DNA from: a virus
IMG/VR virus record: IMGVR_UViG_3300026280_000003
Direction: 5' to 3' (one strand)
DNA: 24,737 nt
In this document: positions 4,612 to 9,187 of the stretch, in pieces
Numbering within the stretch: position 1 is the stretch's first letter
How the letters are laid out: each line of letters begins with the position of its first letter
The notes under the pieces: generated by a model
What the model saw: the letters and a program-made list of their open reading frames with translations, nothing else
Database searches by the model: none
Told to the model about the DNA's origin: nothing
Made by a program: the position numbers and the translations under genes

Positions 4612-4804
4612 TTTCTTCACCTCCCAAAACTTTCTTCAGTTCCTCGTAGAAGGCTTGTGCCTCGTCCTTTTCGAAGGTTTCCGTGCTCCCGTCTACGAAC
4701 TGGATCTGCAACAGCGGGCCGCGCGCGAAGACGTACGTTATCGCGGATACGTTGTTCGTGTTCAGCCAAATAACACTTTGCTCTTTCTGTAGCCTCACCC
4801 ACAT
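4604..4804 (-). CDS. Hypothetical small protein (66 aa)
   Basis: ATG start; preferred over an overlapping Arg-rich alternative frame (4617..4832). Confidence 0.4.
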   Translation of the reverse strand: MWVRLQKEQSVIWLNTNNVSAITYVFARGPLLQIQFVDGSTETFEKDEAQAFYEELKKVLGGEENE

Positions 4805-4852
4805 GCCTTCGCCTGCCTCCCTCAGGCTCCACCTCCTCCTGAGTTTTCTACA

Positions 4853-4881
4853 TCTAACATAGTGGGAGGGACTATGTTAGA
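4853..4881. promoter_or_regulatory. Perfect 11-bp inverted repeat TCTAACATAGT-GGGAGGG-ACTATGTTAGA in the 5' region of the leftward operon (operator or RNA hairpin)
   Basis: Arms are exact reverse complements; the 7-nt loop GGGAGGG is SD-like on one strand. About 50 nt upstream of the ATG at 4804. Confidence 0.5.
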
Positions 4882-4972
4882 CGTGCTAAAGTTTTTCGAA
4901 TCTCGCTAAGATAATATCGACTAAGTTTTGCGATCGCATGAAGCTACCGTAACGATCCCCAAACGCATAGCT

Positions 4973-5062
4973 GAAAAACACGTGAATTTATCATAGGGAG
5001 AAAAACACGTGGTATGATAGAATTGAAAGAAAATAGTTGTGGTAAACTCCAGGTGTGGTAAA
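4973..5062. repeat. Direct repeats in an AT-rich intergenic region: GAAAAACACGTG x2 (27-bp period) and TGTGGTAAA x2 (16-bp period)
   Basis: Copies at about 4973-4984 and 5000-5011; and at about 5038-5046 and 5054-5062. TGTGGTAAACT recurs on the opposite strand at about 5477-5488, just upstream of the resolvase gene. Confidence 0.5.
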
Positions 5063-5092
5063 ATAGAATATTAGCCTGCTCCACCTCCCTTC

Positions 5093-5129
5093 AAATAGAA
5101 AAAGCGCTTTAACCCTCCTTTGGGAGGGT
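5093..5129 (-). terminator. Putative intrinsic terminator/attenuator overlapping the 3' end of the resolvase gene
   Basis: Minus-strand hairpin ACCCTCC-CAAA-GGAGGGT followed by the palindrome AAAGCGCTTT and a T-rich run TTTTTCTATTT. Confidence 0.45.
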
Positions 5130-5459
5130 ATTTCGTTTCAAAAGTTTCTTCAGGGTCTCTAACTCCATGCAAACAATCCAATCTTTTCTGTCTGCTCTAA
5201 CAAAGAGCAAATCCGCGCGCTCAAGGAAACGATACAGCGTTTCAAAACCGCGTGCGCGCCTCTTGACCTCTACGACCCACTGCGGATGTCCCTTTTCGAA
5301 AACGACGACATCGCCTTTTTGGAACTCGGACGCTCCCGAAAGTGGGACGCGTTTTGCGTCGAAACCGAGCTCGCGAAGGATTTCTTCTGCCTCCTTCTCG
5401 CCACGGTATCCTTTTCTCCGCGAAAGCTTTCCCACAAACAATCCCCCCTTCTCTGCCAT
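5109..5459 (-). CDS. Holliday-junction resolvase, archaeal Hjc-type PD-(D/E)xK nuclease
   Basis: Pattern GYRGEKEAEEILRELGFDAKRVPLSGASEFQKGDVVVF...VVEVK matches the Hjc arrangement (G..E...L...GF...R...SG......D....(E)xK). Likely start is the ATG at about 5459 (RBS GAAGGGG); the track ORF begins at a GTG at 5465. Confidence 0.55.
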   Translation of the reverse strand: MAEKGGLFVGKLSRRKGYRGEKEAEEILRELGFDAKRVPLSGASEFQKGDVVVFEKGHPQWVVEVKRRARGFETLYRFLERADLLFVRADRKDWIVCMELETLKKLLKRNTLPKEG

Positions 5460-5549
5460 TTGCACCCCTTCAACAATAGTTTACCACATGAACGGCGCGG
5501 TGGCTAAGGGAGGAGAACATGGGTTGCGCTTTCTCGGTTTCATCATTCT

Positions 5550-5614
5550 GCAATGTACTTGATCGCAAGTCGTTACGGAGTCTACATTATGTCGCAATGT
5601 AGGGGGGGTATAAT
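5550..5614 (+). promoter_or_regulatory. Control region for the plus-strand operon: three AATGTA half-sites, including the inverted repeat CTACATT-N7-AATGTAG, directly upstream of a TATAAT -10 box
   Basis: GCAATGTAC at about 5550-5558; CTACATT at about 5582-5588; AATGTAG at about 5596-5602; TATAAT at about 5609-5614. No good -35 hexamer at 17-bp spacing; the inverted repeat occupies that position. Confidence 0.5.
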
Positions 5615-5683
5615 TGGGGTGAAAAGTGTTTGAGAAGCCCCGCCGGGTGAGGTGGCGGGAAAACGGGAAAGGAGGGGTGAAGG

Positions 5684-5902
5684 ATGAAAGATGTGCGAAA
5701 AATCATTGAAGATTGGCTCGAGAACAGGATGTGGCATCTCATACCACAAGAGACACGGCAAAAAGCGGAGCAGTTGTTGCAGCAAGGGGTTGCGGGAATC
5801 GATTTAAAGGGTCTCATCATCGTGCTTCATCATTTTGTTACTGAACCGGTCGAGACTCGTTACGGAACCGACATCGTAGCGCAACGAAAGGCAGTAAAAT
5901 AA
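5684..5902 (+). CDS. Hypothetical protein (72 aa), first gene of the only plus-strand operon
   Basis: ATG preceded by GGAAAGGAGGGGTGAAGG; no recognisable motif. Confidence 0.5.
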   Translation: MKDVRKIIEDWLENRMWHLIPQETRQKAEQLLQQGVAGIDLKGLIIVLHHFVTEPVETRYGTDIVAQRKAVK

Positions 5903-5956
5903 AAGTGGAAAACAACAAATGCCGTCGGGGAACGACGGCAAAAGGGAGGGGGAAGT

Positions 5957-6310
5957 ATGGGAAAGATAACTTTAGAGTCATTGGAGGCACCCTATGTCTT
6001 AAAAGAAAGCACGTATTTCTGGCGGACGGAGCGGCATGCGGCCGCGCGCCGCAGCCGCGAGAAATACTACGTGAGCCTGGTAGAAGACTGGTTGAGGCGC
6101 CTTTGTGAACAACACGGGTTGAACCTCAGAATTGAAAAGACAGACACGAGCGTCGCGGCATACAACAAAGATGAGCAGGTATTCAAATTCACAATCAGGT
6201 TAAGTTGCCGCCACGTTTACAAGAGACAAGATGTGAAAAAGTTACTGCGGCTGGTTTCTGAAACGCAAAGGAAAGGAGGTGACGGACGTCCTCCCGCGGC
6301 AGGGGAGTAA
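5957..6310 (+). CDS. Hypothetical protein (117 aa), basic
   Basis: ATG preceded by AGGGAGGGGGAAGT; no recognisable motif. Confidence 0.5.
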   Translation: MGKITLESLEAPYVLKESTYFWRTERHAAARRSREKYYVSLVEDWLRRLCEQHGLNLRIEKTDTSVAAYNKDEQVFKFTIRLSCRHVYKRQDVKKLLRLVSETQRKGGDGRPPAAGE

Positions 6311-6339
6311 AAACGGAGAAGAGGAGGTGGAAGCCCGCG

Positions 6340-6693
6340 GTGGGAGGCGCGGGCAAGGCGATGGGAAAGGCAGAAGTACTTCAAAAGCTGCGCAAATTCT
6401 TGAGAAAGAATCTCTGGGAGATCCCCGAGGTCCAAGAAGCGGTCGCGCAGTTGGAGAGATTGGCCGCGCAGCACGATTGGTACCCCTCAGACGTGCTCAA
6501 CTTTGAAATCATGTATGAGAACAAGCCGCGAGCGCTCAGGATAATTTTCAGTGCTCCTGTTGAAACGCTCGGCGAAGACTCCGTAAAAGAGATGCACCGC
6601 TGGCAAGAAGTAATAGCGACCGCAGTCCAGTCCTTTGTTTTGAAAACCCTCGAAGCCGAAGGTCTCCCATGGGAAATTGTGAACGAGCTCTGA
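6340..6693 (+). CDS. Hypothetical protein (117 aa by the track GTG start; alternative ATG at about 6361)
   Basis: GAGGAGGTGG about 9 nt upstream of the GTG at 6340; ends at a TGA immediately before the bidirectional terminator. Confidence 0.5.
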   Translation: MGGAGKAMGKAEVLQKLRKFLRKNLWEIPEVQEAVAQLERLAAQHDWYPSDVLNFEIMYENKPRALRIIFSAPVETLGEDSVKEMHRWQEVIATAVQSFVLKTLEAEGLPWEIVNEL

Positions 6694-6710: not shown

Positions 6711-6741
6711 AAAAGGTCCGCTCACGAGGAGCGGACCTTTT
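6711..6741. terminator. Bidirectional intrinsic terminator between convergent genes
   Basis: AAAA-GGTCCGCTC-ACGAG-GAGCGGACC-TTTT: 9-bp perfect GC-rich stem flanked by an A-tract and a T-tract; located between the plus-strand stop at 6693 and the minus-strand stop at 6744. Confidence 0.8.
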
Positions 6742-7244: not shown

Positions 7245-7411
7245 TTTGTGAACTTGCTCGCCACATTGCTGCCGCAGTAGATTCCGAACAACGCGATAAC
7301 GACGTGGGAAAAGTTATCGTTGTCGATCTTGTCGAAAACTTTGAGGAGAAAAAAAGCCGCAATGAGAAGCAGCGCCAAGATGAATTTGCGGCTTTTCCAC
7401 TTCTCTTCCAT
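7241..7411 (-). CDS. Small two-TM membrane protein (56 aa), holin-like
   Basis: Hand-translated: MEEKWKSRKFILALLLIAAFFLLKVFDKIDNDNFSHVVIALFGIYCGSNVASKFTK. RBS GAGGTGA; two hydrophobic segments; stop overlaps the next start. Not in the ORF track (under 60 aa). Confidence 0.45.
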   Translation of the reverse strand: MEEKWKSRKFILALLLIAAFFLLKVFDKIDNDNFSHVVIALFGIYCGSNVASKFTK

Positions 7412-7415
7412 ACGG

Positions 7416-7778
7416 TCACCTCACGAAGAGCAAAACGAGCGTTCCTATCGTGATCGCTCCGACGACAATCCATGCAACTCTTTTTTGTTTGTCTAACTCT
7501 GTTTTCAGCCTCTGTACTTCTTCAGCAAGCGCTTTCTTTTCCGCTTTCTCGAGCTCCAGCATATCGCGCAAAACTTGCACTTGTTGTTCGAGATTCGCAA
7601 TTTGCGCGCGATAGTTCTGATTCAGCTCCTCCAGCTGTTTGATGTAGTTTGCGAGCAAAATCACCGTTTCTTCGTCGAGATAATATCTGCCGTCCTCGGC
7701 ACGCTGAATGATTTTGTATTCGGCGAAGAGAGAAACGACGGCAAAGAGGATCAACAATATCAGAAGCCTCTTCATCAC
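7416..7778 (-). CDS. Membrane protein with N-terminal signal/TM, central coiled coil and C-terminal TM; spanin-like (unimolecular-spanin architecture, no lipobox Cys)
   Basis: MMKRLLILLILFAVVSLFA... then heptad-rich QLEELNQNYRAQIANLEQQVQVLRDMLELEKAEKKALAEEVQRLKTELDKQ, then WIVVGAITIGTLVLLFV; RBS GGAGGGATCGTG. Confidence 0.45.
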   Translation of the reverse strand: MMKRLLILLILFAVVSLFAEYKIIQRAEDGRYYLDEETVILLANYIKQLEELNQNYRAQIANLEQQVQVLRDMLELEKAEKKALAEEVQRLKTELDKQKRVAWIVVGAITIGTLVLLFVR

Positions 7779-7891
7779 GATCCCTCCAGTCGGAAACCTT
7801 CTTCTTTTATCTCGAACTTTGTTAGCTTACCATCCTTTAAAAGCGCACAACAAAGTCTGCCTTGCTCGTTTACATATGCCCATACACGCAT

Positions 7892-7993
7892 TCACATCAA
7901 GCTCCTTACGATGATTTCGTAGATCTGCACGACGCTATCGAATGCGGAAGCTACTACCGCCACCAGAAGCAACAACACCACGAGGCATCTCAT
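7892..7993 (-). CDS. Small hydrophobic peptide (33 aa)
   Basis: Hand-translated: MRCLVVLLLLVAVVASAFDSVVQIYEIIVRSLM. Strong RBS AAAGGAGG 8 nt upstream; not in the ORF track (under 60 aa). Confidence 0.3.
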   Translation of the reverse strand: MRCLVVLLLLVAVVASAFDSVVQIYEIIVRSLM

Positions 7994-8008
7994 GATTTCG
8001 CCTCCTTT

Positions 8009-8320
8009 TCACTTTTTAAGTTTCTTTAGTACCTCGTTCAAGTACTCAATCGCCTCATCCACGTTGTTGAAGTGCTTTTTGTCGTAGATGATCTTTTCCT
8101 CTGCTTTGAGCTTTTCAAGCTCTTTTTCAAGCTTATCAAGCTCCGCTGTCTTACGTTTTTTAATCTCCTCTAACTCTGTTTTCAGCTGTTGCCTTTGCTT
8201 TTTCTTCGCTAACTCCGCTCCGCCGACGAACGCGACTAACGCGAGGATGAGCCACCAAAACCGCTTGACGAATTCTGTTGACGCTTTGAAAAACTCTTTA
8301 ATCACCTTCACTATTTTCAT
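8009..8320 (-). CDS. Type-II membrane-anchored coiled-coil protein (about 103 aa), i-spanin-like
   Basis: Likely ATG start at about 8320 (RBS GGAAGGTGAG); the track ORF extends to 8380. N-terminal TM FWWLILALVAFVGGA followed by a Lys/Glu-rich coiled coil. Confidence 0.45.
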   Translation of the reverse strand: MKIVKVIKEFFKASTEFVKRFWWLILALVAFVGGAELAKKKQRQQLKTELEEIKKRKTAELDKLEKELEKLKAEEKIIYDKKHFNNVDEAIEYLNEVLKKLKK

Positions 8321-8696
8321 TCGTCTCACCTTCCTTCGTGAGTAGTAAATCAACCAACCTGCGCGCTTGTTCGTTTGCAAGGAAGCTCACAAGACCCGTG
8401 GCGATCGCATCAACAAAATGTTCGTTCTTTCGCACACTGTGCCGCAAAGACTCATGACCCGTTATGTACCCAATTGCGTGCAAGACTTCGTGAAACAATG
8501 TTTGTGCAAACTGAGTTCGTGAGAGAAGCGGAGACACGTAGATGCGAGCATCCTCGAGGTCATAAGCGACGTGAAGTCCTTGTGTGGTTTCAATTTCCAA
8601 GCCTTCCTCTTCGCACGCCTCGGAAAGTTTTTGTTCGTCGCATATAATTCTGTATGGAACGCCTAAAATCCTTACACTTATCTCAAATCCTTTCAT
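8298..8696 (-). CDS. HExxH zinc-metallopeptidase-like protein (132 aa), translationally coupled to the endolysin
   Basis: Motif TLFHEVLHAIGYITGHE (HExxH plus a downstream His/Glu); the start ATG overlaps the endolysin stop (ATGA). Confidence 0.5.
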   Translation of the reverse strand: MKGFEISVRILGVPYRIICDEQKLSEACEEEGLEIETTQGLHVAYDLEDARIYVSPLLSRTQFAQTLFHEVLHAIGYITGHESLRHSVRKNEHFVDAIATGLVSFLANEQARRLVDLLLTKEGETNENSEGD

Positions 8697-9187
8697 CGCT
8701 TACCCTCCCCTTTGAGTCGCCAAAACTCGCTCCAAAAGAGGAAATCAATCAAGTGCGCTTTTGTCTCTTGCGGTACAGCTTCATCGATTTTGCAATTCGA
8801 CGGATCTCGCATCGCCAGCCAATTCAAAACGTTCCCAATACCCCAATTGTATGCCATGACCGCGAGAATGTCGGCACGTTCGTAGTCGAAAAACATTCTG
8901 TAAAGACGTCTAAGATAGCGAATCCCAACAAAGATGTTGCGGTCTGGTCTAAACATGTCATCGTAGTCGAAGTTTGTTGAATAAATCTGGTTTATATCCT
9001 CGAGCGCCGCGCGCGAGACCTGCATAAGTCCTCTCGCATATCCCGAATCCGCGTTAGGATCCCAGGCGCTTTCGGTTTCAATCAGCGCAAAAACGTGGTG
9101 CAACTTCGGAAAGTCCGCGACCTTGTACGCCGTCACAAAGTCAACATAGTGTGCCTCAACTAAGTGTTCAAGCATTTTTCTTGTCAT
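8693..9187 (-). CDS. Endolysin, lytic transglycosylase (SLT domain)
   Basis: Family-1 lytic transglycosylase motifs: ETES (catalytic Glu), GLMQV, and AYNWG; no signal peptide or TM segment. Confidence 0.8.
   Translation of the reverse strand: MTRKMLEHLVEAHYVDFVTAYKVADFPKLHHVFALIETESAWDPNADSGYARGLMQVSRAALEDINQIYSTNFDYDDMFRPDRNIFVGIRYLRRLYRMFFDYERADILAVMAYNWGIGNVLNWLAMRDPSNCKIDEAVPQETKAHLIDFLFWSEFWRLKGEGKR

Follow-up and report, generated by a model that had tools for sequence, protein, structure and literature searches.

Variable cassettes of orphan genes are a repeated source of anti-defence and host-takeover proteins in phages. In acr-aca operons, small orphan genes form a short operon under a promoter of its own that carries an inverted repeat; gene content varies among close relatives, and one conserved gene, encoding a helix-turn-helix (HTH) protein, lies at the 3' end. 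Genes 38 and 25 of phage T4 are translated from hairpin-bridged ribosome-binding sites (RBSs), in which the Shine-Dalgarno (SD) sequence is too distant from the start codon unless the hairpin folds. The hyperplastic regions of T4-type phages are described as containing non-essential orphan genes bounded by PeSL regulatory cassettes (PMC2839356, PMC4122927), the PeSL being presented as a combined promoter and terminator which serves gene exchange in these phages (PMC2839356). Viral ring nucleases include AcrIII-1/Crn2 and, in phages, Csx16 and Csx20; Csx16 is a biochemically confirmed cA4-specific ring nuclease which is rare in phages, with two genomes out of 28,114 containing it (PMC12409355). 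Here we analysed a cassette of three open reading frames (ORF1 to ORF3) at positions 5,684 to 6,693 of the virus record IMGVR_UViG_3300026280_000003 from IMG/VR. The whole stretch of 24,737 nucleotides (nt) is referred to as the window, and labels such as L004, L005 or L006 designate the related loci or contigs with which it was compared.

By analogy, the cassette seems closest to an acr-type operon or to a unit of a T4 hyperplastic region, and appears to be a member of neither. An orphan accessory cassette is ordinary in phages; what is new here is the protein families, a confidently predicted fold without structural neighbour, and an element of two hairpins that is reused at gene junctions. 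We favour the reading, with a probability of about 40%, that the cassette is an accessory host-interaction or anti-defence unit located in a plasticity zone. This reading is drawn from context. It is preferred because an insulated unit with a putative promoter of its own encodes small, soluble orphan proteins in a plastic locus, and because the ORF3 family is acidic, duplicated and fast-diverging, ORF1 is probably dispensable in nature, and the zone can hold a ring-nuclease gene. An earlier note on this DNA had called the cassette the strongest candidate for undescribed biology in the window, a phrase that is justified insofar as it describes our ignorance, and not as a claim about function.

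The cassette locus is a plasticity zone. The early proteins of the relative L004 are 82-88% identical to those of the window. Between the gene for a 66-amino-acid (66-aa) protein and the homologue of the 166-aa gene, L004 contains about 4.2 kb, compared with 1.9 kb in the window. This 4.2-kb zone is made of small units on both strands with seven other genes, and only ORF3 (65% identity), its last gene, is common to the two phages. ORF1 and ORF2 are absent from L004, although the resolvase and the replicase are kept. A second accessory gene with a presence-absence pattern is the 166-aa gene adjoining the cassette terminator: it is missing in L006, L025, L026, L027, L029 and L030, where about 50 nt are found in its place. 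The terminator is kept in all variants, even in those without this gene.

One of the genes of the L004 zone (7478-8119, plus strand) codes for a protein of 213 aa, and the last 90 of these residues match Csx16/Cas_VVA1548 (Pfam E 2e-13, 50.8 bits for a cut-off of 25; PADLOC E 3e-12). On the strength of this match, the gene is a likely candidate for an anti-type-III-CRISPR function, and its presence in a relative is a sign of pressure exerted by type III CRISPR signalling. L004 has the promoter region of this gene in duplicate (7355-7465 and 8677-8787; 111 nt, 80% identical). The resemblance to viral ring nucleases is confined to this protein, since the Cas_VVA1548 domain had no match in ORF1, ORF2 or ORF3 and none of the three resembled a CARF-like fold. 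The cassette shares with acr-aca operons its short array of small orphan genes, a content which varies among close relatives, a conserved gene at the 3' end and a CRISPR-related domain in the same zone of a relative; the inverted repeat at its putative promoter may be a further parallel. It differs from them in that the conserved 3' gene, ORF3, encodes an acidic protein without HTH and can be duplicated, and in that no known Acr or Aca family is matched.

All three proteins are orphans. The earlier note had recognised no domain in any of them, and indeed Pfam, PHROGs, NCBIfam and PADLOC gave nothing near threshold, while sequence and profile searches against the PDB returned nothing below E = 1. 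No homology to known late-gene activators or structural proteins was found in searches of hidden Markov model libraries, the PDB and folds. Among 5.8 billion clustered proteins, all relatives of ORF1 were at least 98% identical and all relatives of ORF2 at least 90% identical; ORF3 had one relative at 65%. When 1.84 billion representatives were searched exhaustively with a profile, the ORF3 family grew to six clusters at 50% identity, with conservation down to 25% identity. Its best-conserved part is the N-terminal motif FLxxDLWxIPEVxxAV. The members are acidic (isoelectric point (pI) 4.2-5.2, net charge -3 to -18), and L005, L012 and L013 each carry two ORF3 paralogues amid other orphan genes. 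The structure of ORF3 was predicted with confidence (pLDDT 91), and fold searches with this model gave no structural neighbour, DNA-binding folds included. Scans with the ORF3 profile found no member in IMG/VR or in 185,579 species genomes, and a metagenome scan gave no loci beyond those already found. In L011 (915-4604), a 30%-identical ORF3-family gene is followed by an AAA ATPase with weak matches to the IetA and PDC-M37B defence models and by a 560-aa orphan, a context unlike that of the phage cassettes.

ORF2 and ORF3 are real genes under purifying selection, with a ratio of non-synonymous to synonymous rates (dN/dS) of about 0.1. ORF2 differs from its counterpart in the 95%-identical variant L006 by 13.2 synonymous and 4.8 non-synonymous changes (dN/dS 0.09). 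For ORF3, the ratio was 0.12 against L006 and 0.11 against the 65%-identical copy of L004. The two proteins are unrelated by profile comparison (probability 0.8%). A 135-nt indel between the window and L006 lies 3' of ORF2 and takes out a terminator along with a 5' hairpin arm, ending within hairpin 1 of the ORF3 junction described below; the C-terminal tail of ORF2 is therefore variable. Its final 7 codons fall within the junction element.

ORF1 is probably dispensable in nature and is less secure as a gene than ORF2 and ORF3, since its reading frame is split in natural variants. In L006, L007 and L026, which come from different samples, an identical insertion of 128 nt interrupts the gene after window position 5806 (L006 6255-6382, L007 291-418, L026 1770-1897). 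The insertion is bounded by short inverted ends (GTCTGGC...GCCAGAC), contains a 14-bp palindromic hairpin as well as a terminator-like stem, and looks like a miniature mobile element; no further copies were found in the compared loci. A resemblance to the conserved N-terminal motif of the ORF3 family was noted for the first 18 residues of ORF1, KDVRKIIEDWLENRMWHL (hhalign P 0.0018, probability 15%; 5684-5740 compared with 6370-6430). This may reflect a shared helix or distant paralogy, and is too weak for a claim.

The organisation of the unit agrees largely with the earlier note, which had described an insulated plus-strand operon between an operator-like promoter and a strong bidirectional terminator. 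The three ORFs are where they had been reported, the gene calls of the source contigs put no other gene on the plus strand, and a GGAGG-type site precedes each ORF, in agreement with the good RBSs announced. Only over 5501-6500 do GC skew and AT skew take positive values, matching the strand switch. The terminator is indeed strong in both directions (about -25 kcal/mol on both strands, z-scores -4.7 and -3.6). Two statements had to be amended. ORF3 was given as 117 aa, which would place its start at GTG 6340; this codon lies in a conserved hairpin loop and the related genes all use an ATG located 8-10 nt past the hairpin, so that the start is most likely ATG 6361 (110 aa). The cassette had also been placed between a recombination module and a lysis cassette. 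The first neighbour is correct, with a resolvase on this side; on the right-hand side lies the transglutaminase-like accessory gene, not a lysis gene.

The operator-like promoter was borne out in part. A TATAAT -10 box and a palindrome are present, but no -35 match was seen and a consensus scan gave no promoter. The palindrome is the sole 7-bp perfect inverted repeat in 5466-5683 and was equalled in 76 of 1000 shuffled sequences (7.6%). It is single, with one extra half-site, and inspection by eye revealed no operator array in this region. It is identical in L006, and gains weight only from related cassettes with an inverted repeat at the same place: in L004, L005, L011 and L013, this repeat covers the -35 position and is followed by a TATAAT-like -10 box, a GTGAAAA motif, a leader hairpin and the first gene. 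GGTGAAAAGTG (5618-5628) comes next after the -10 box of the cassette, as it does in L011 and L013. The leader hairpin of the window has a stable stem, yet its fold is no better than that of shuffles of this G-rich stretch (z -0.26). The hairpin between ORF1 and ORF2 has no U-tract on the plus strand and is terminator-like on the minus strand only.

An arrangement of about 80 nt precedes cassette genes in these phages. It consists of hairpin 1, an A-rich spacer, the SD sequence AGGAGGTG, hairpin 2 and, 8-10 nt further, the ATG. Hairpin 1 begins a few nt past the upstream stop codon or terminator, and its loop is (U)UCCUCCC(R) or RCUCCCGG; the loop of hairpin 2 is GGGAGG(A) or GACCGGGAGA. At the ORF3 junction, the intact two-hairpin form is found in L006. 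We aligned 14 distinct copies by hand according to structure, and counted the pairs in Python. Hairpin 1 had standard pairs at all 105 places and hairpin 2 at 85 of 86 (190 of 191 altogether), in stems which are variable in sequence (2-5 pair types per position). In the inner six pairs of hairpin 1, all 84 places were paired; when the 3' arms were reshuffled among copies, the mean was 51.5 of 84 and the maximum 71. The presence of four G-U pairs, as opposed to one C-A mismatch, is compatible with RNA of the coding strand. In every copy, the two loops are complementary to each other over 6-7 nt (CCUCCC/GGGAGG or CUCCCGG/CCGGGAG), and the complementary stretch moves jointly in both between the two loop classes. 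This loop-loop covariation is suggestive and not decisive, because pairing across the classes is only 1-2 nt shorter. The SD-to-ATG distance is 10-12 nt with hairpin 2 folded out, and 27-36 nt otherwise.

The spacing is that of T4 genes 38 and 25, with an SD sequence too far from the start codon unless the hairpin folds. The junction element differs from these sites by a second, upstream hairpin whose loop is complementary to the bridging loop, and by being reused at many genes. The most economical reading is that it forms a hairpin-bridged RBS, which would be stabilised or gated by contact with the anti-SD-like loop of hairpin 1. Compact, reused and with strong covariation, it is a potential device of translational control. 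Rfam gave only sub-threshold, leader-like matches on terminator hairpins for the cassette and its L006 variant. Hairpin 1 was considered as an intrinsic terminator and rejected, as it has no U-tract and true terminators are often located just upstream. A pattern search of IMG/VR for the element hit two contigs; neither has related genes, and the matches, located in GC-rich coding sequence, are due to chance.

Clustered orphan genes with a repeated stem-loop motif between them, and relatives which differ at the junctions, also recall the T4-type hyperplastic regions. The repeat may likewise serve gene exchange, as PeSLs do, although recombination at these junctions is something that we infer. 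The breakpoint of the 135-nt indel between the window and L006 is inside hairpin 1, in a comparison of few genomes. Unlike a PeSL, the element is a translation-initiation region, with two hairpins of variable stems and conserved complementary loops; it contains no promoter-like hexamers, its hairpins have no U-tracts, and separate canonical terminators often precede it. It is also unlike integron attC sites, given its conserved loops and variable stems, its position around an RBS and its G-U pairs compatible with coding-strand RNA; furthermore, the precomputed Pfam matches for called genes include no integrase. A bolder proposal, which we regard as speculative and improbable in its full form, would make the ORF3 family a set of new-fold inhibitors of defence or of another host machine, carried on exchangeable cassettes joined by a kissing-loop RNA device which frames the RBS, sets translation and provides homology for swapping.

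If the cassette is an accessory host-interaction unit, it could work as follows. Host RNA polymerase would start from the -10 box, presumably early in infection, and a regulator would probably gate this start through the palindrome over the -35 position. ORF1, ORF2 and ORF3 would be read as a single mRNA, with transcription ending at the bidirectional terminator, which would also end the convergent late operon. ORF3 would be translated from the hairpin-bridged RBS of the two-hairpin element that joins it to ORF2. The three products are predicted to be small soluble cytoplasmic proteins, acting on the host and not on phage building or replication. ORF3 would most likely inhibit a host factor through protein binding, and this factor might be part of a defence system. 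ORF2 would be the best nucleic-acid-binding candidate of the cassette, possibly at the promoter palindrome, and ORF1 would be dispensable.

Several observations weigh against this reading. Csx16 is a different gene in a different phage; it shows only the capacity of the zone and nothing direct on ORF1 to ORF3. The strong purifying selection on ORF2 and ORF3 is equally compatible with an essential phage function. Almost all related loci were found via ORF3, so that its presence throughout such cassettes is a biased observation; ORF3 might just as well be a core regulator. The structure model of ORF2 is of low confidence. Finally, the palindrome is not significant on its own and no -35 box accompanies it, so that the promoter of the cassette is a putative one.

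The main rival, which we consider unlikely though ahead of the others, is a regulatory module, such as a timing switch or autoregulated factors. One product would bind the palindrome and control the early or late operons, and the cassette would be core and not cargo. Its location at a divergent promoter region, from the end of the late operon to the start of the early genes, fits this idea, as does the inverted repeat over the -35 position here and in relatives, whose half-sites change between phages as ORF3 diverges. The basic character of ORF2, the strength of selection on ORF2 and ORF3, and the presence of an ORF3-family gene in every related cassette seen are also in its favour, the last with the search bias mentioned above. 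However, no HTH, ribbon-helix-helix (RHH) or other DNA-binding domain was detected in ORF1 to ORF3 with Pfam, PHROGs and NCBIfam. Moreover, ORF3 was modelled with confidence and resembles no DNA-binding fold, its family is strongly acidic, and two ORF3 paralogues per cassette would be unusual for a dedicated regulator. Across the whole genome, the precomputed Pfam matches for the called genes of the source contigs include no integrase, partition gene or repressor, no search having been aimed at them. The small, oppositely oriented unit, the divergent promoter region and the palindromic site do recall the lambdoid immunity region (cI/cro); the cassette departs from it in having no HTH repressor, a single palindrome and, among the same Pfam matches, no integrase. 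Of the two options of the earlier note, a switch or accessory cargo, cargo is favoured by the varying content of the locus, the disruption of ORF1, the variable 166-aa gene and the Csx16 gene in a relative. A classical switch is not supported, given the lack of HTH or RHH, the acidity of ORF3 and the absence of an integrase from these Pfam matches. If the cassette were a core regulator after all, it would represent a regulator family without known DNA-binding motif.

A role as recombination or replication accessory factors, acting with the resolvase and the origin-like repeats, is doubtful and ranks clearly below a regulatory module. ORF2, for example, would be a small basic DNA-binding protein, as its pI of 9.7 would allow. 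The cassette adjoins the Hjc-type resolvase and is near a 300-nt non-coding region with repeated TTTACCACA and CACGTGTTTTTC. Against this, the cassette proteins showed no similarity to replication or recombination families in Pfam, PHROGs and NCBIfam, the cassette is separately transcribed in the opposite direction, and L004 keeps both resolvase and replicase without ORF1 and ORF2.

Superinfection exclusion, or immunity of a persistent (carrier or plasmid-like) state, is less probable still. The cassette, insulated, in opposite orientation and with a putative promoter of its own, is organised as morons often are. However, no hydrophobic segment or signal peptide was found in the three proteins: the maximum 19-residue hydropathy was 1.39 for ORF1, 0.12 for ORF2 and 1.04 for ORF3, whereas a membrane protein of this phage reached 2.59. 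Membrane-based exclusion is thus unlikely. No repressor fold was found, nor, among the precomputed Pfam matches for the called genes, an integrase or partition gene. That the ORFs are random open frames or decaying, functionless remnants is very improbable: the interruption of ORF1 in some variants and the lack of distant relatives for ORF1 and ORF2 would fit, but the dN/dS values contradict this for both ORF2 and ORF3, the RBSs are strong, composition switches with the strand, and ORF3 has a confident fold and a family conserved to 25% identity.

Table 1. Coordinates of the features of the cassette and of its surroundings, with the copies of the junction element in related loci (positions in the window unless a locus is named; a dot is given where no one strand applies).
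Feature	Position	Strand	Remarks
ORF1	5684..5902	+	72 aa; near-neutral (pI 8.1); orphan
ORF2	5957..6310	+	117 aa; basic (pI 9.7, net charge +8); orphan
ORF3	6361..6693	+	110 aa from ATG 6361 (117 aa from GTG 6340); acidic (pI 5.1); founder of a tiny family
Candidate operator, palindrome CTACATT-N7-AATGTAG	5582..5602	.	read from sequence; overlaps the -35 position
-10 box, TATAAT	5609..5614	+	read from sequence; no recognisable -35
Leader hairpin ahead of ORF1 RBS	5639..5659	+	7-bp GC stem; loop GGGUGAG
Hairpin between ORF1 and ORF2	5920..5940	+	8-bp stem; -15.3 kcal/mol; z -5.4
Junction element before ORF3	6290..6363	+	5' arm of hairpin 1 missing; anti-SD-like CCUCCC 6290-6295, then A-rich spacer
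Parts of ORF3 junction	6322-6329; 6333-6354	+	SD AGGAGGTG; hairpin 2 with loop GUGGGAGG; then ATG 6361
Bidirectional intrinsic terminator	6711..6741	.	13-bp stem; A-tract before, T-tract after; ends the cassette and the convergent minus-strand operon
Transglutaminase-like gene, 166 aa	6744..7244	-	variable neighbour; Transglut_core and CEP76-peptidase matches below Pfam cut-offs
Hjc/PDDEXK-type Holliday-junction resolvase	5109..5465	-	divergent from cassette; one-gene unit with its own terminator
Second, complete junction element	4802..4884	-	precedes the 66-aa gene, the first of the main early operon
Junction remnant past resolvase stop	5060-5130	-	hairpin ACCCTCC-CAAA-GGAGGGT, T-tract, then GGGAGGTGGAGCAGGC; no gene behind
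Junction copies, L004	9415-9497; 9925-10008; ~6118-6190	+; +; -	
Junction copies, L005	700-781; 1315-1395; 1745-1826; 2260-2340		
Junction copy, L006	6990-7071		
Junction copies, L011	420-510; 830-917		
Junction copies, L012	250-345; 1050-1138		
Junction copy, L013	945-1036		
Junction copy, L016	660-750		

The whole window corresponds to a complete small phage genome. ORF2 is encoded on the ENA contig k141_273257 (24,779 bp), and a 50.8-kb JGI contig, Ga0061020_1000041, consists of two tandem genome copies with ORF2 present twice, 24,638 bp apart. As this spacing equals 24,779 minus a 141-bp assembler overlap, the unit genome is 24,638 bp and circular or circularly permuted. The gene for the large terminase is broken across the ends of the window. 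Minus-strand genes include those for a Mu-type portal, an F-like protein, a protease, a tape-measure protein and an SLT lysin, together with an AAA_25 replicase with winged helix and the resolvase.

This lineage is poorly sampled. A near-identity search among isolate phages gave no match, identity of the portal to isolate phages is only about 26%, and a scan of IMG/VR with the replicase returned a single 6-kb fragment which ends short of the cassette; beyond this fragment, the isolate-phage collection and IMG/VR provide no relative. The closest large terminase in the 185,579 species genomes is 55% identical and lies on contig JALSLY010000036.1 (L017) of a Thermotogae metagenome-assembled genome. 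This match is the sole clue to the host and gives a weak hint that it may belong to the Thermotogae; L017 could itself be a mis-binned phage contig.

In L004, the resolvase gene is flanked by plus-strand units on both sides. The remnant found past the resolvase stop in the window looks like a decayed junction element, and the same remnant occurs at about 6880-6960 in L004. A non-coding region of 300 nt (4805-5108) separates the resolvase terminator from the 66-aa gene. TTTACCACA is directly repeated at 5038-5046 and 5054-5062, with a third copy on the other strand at 5480-5488, and CACGTGTTTTTC has two copies in the 300-nt region, which may be an origin or a set of operators for the main early operon.

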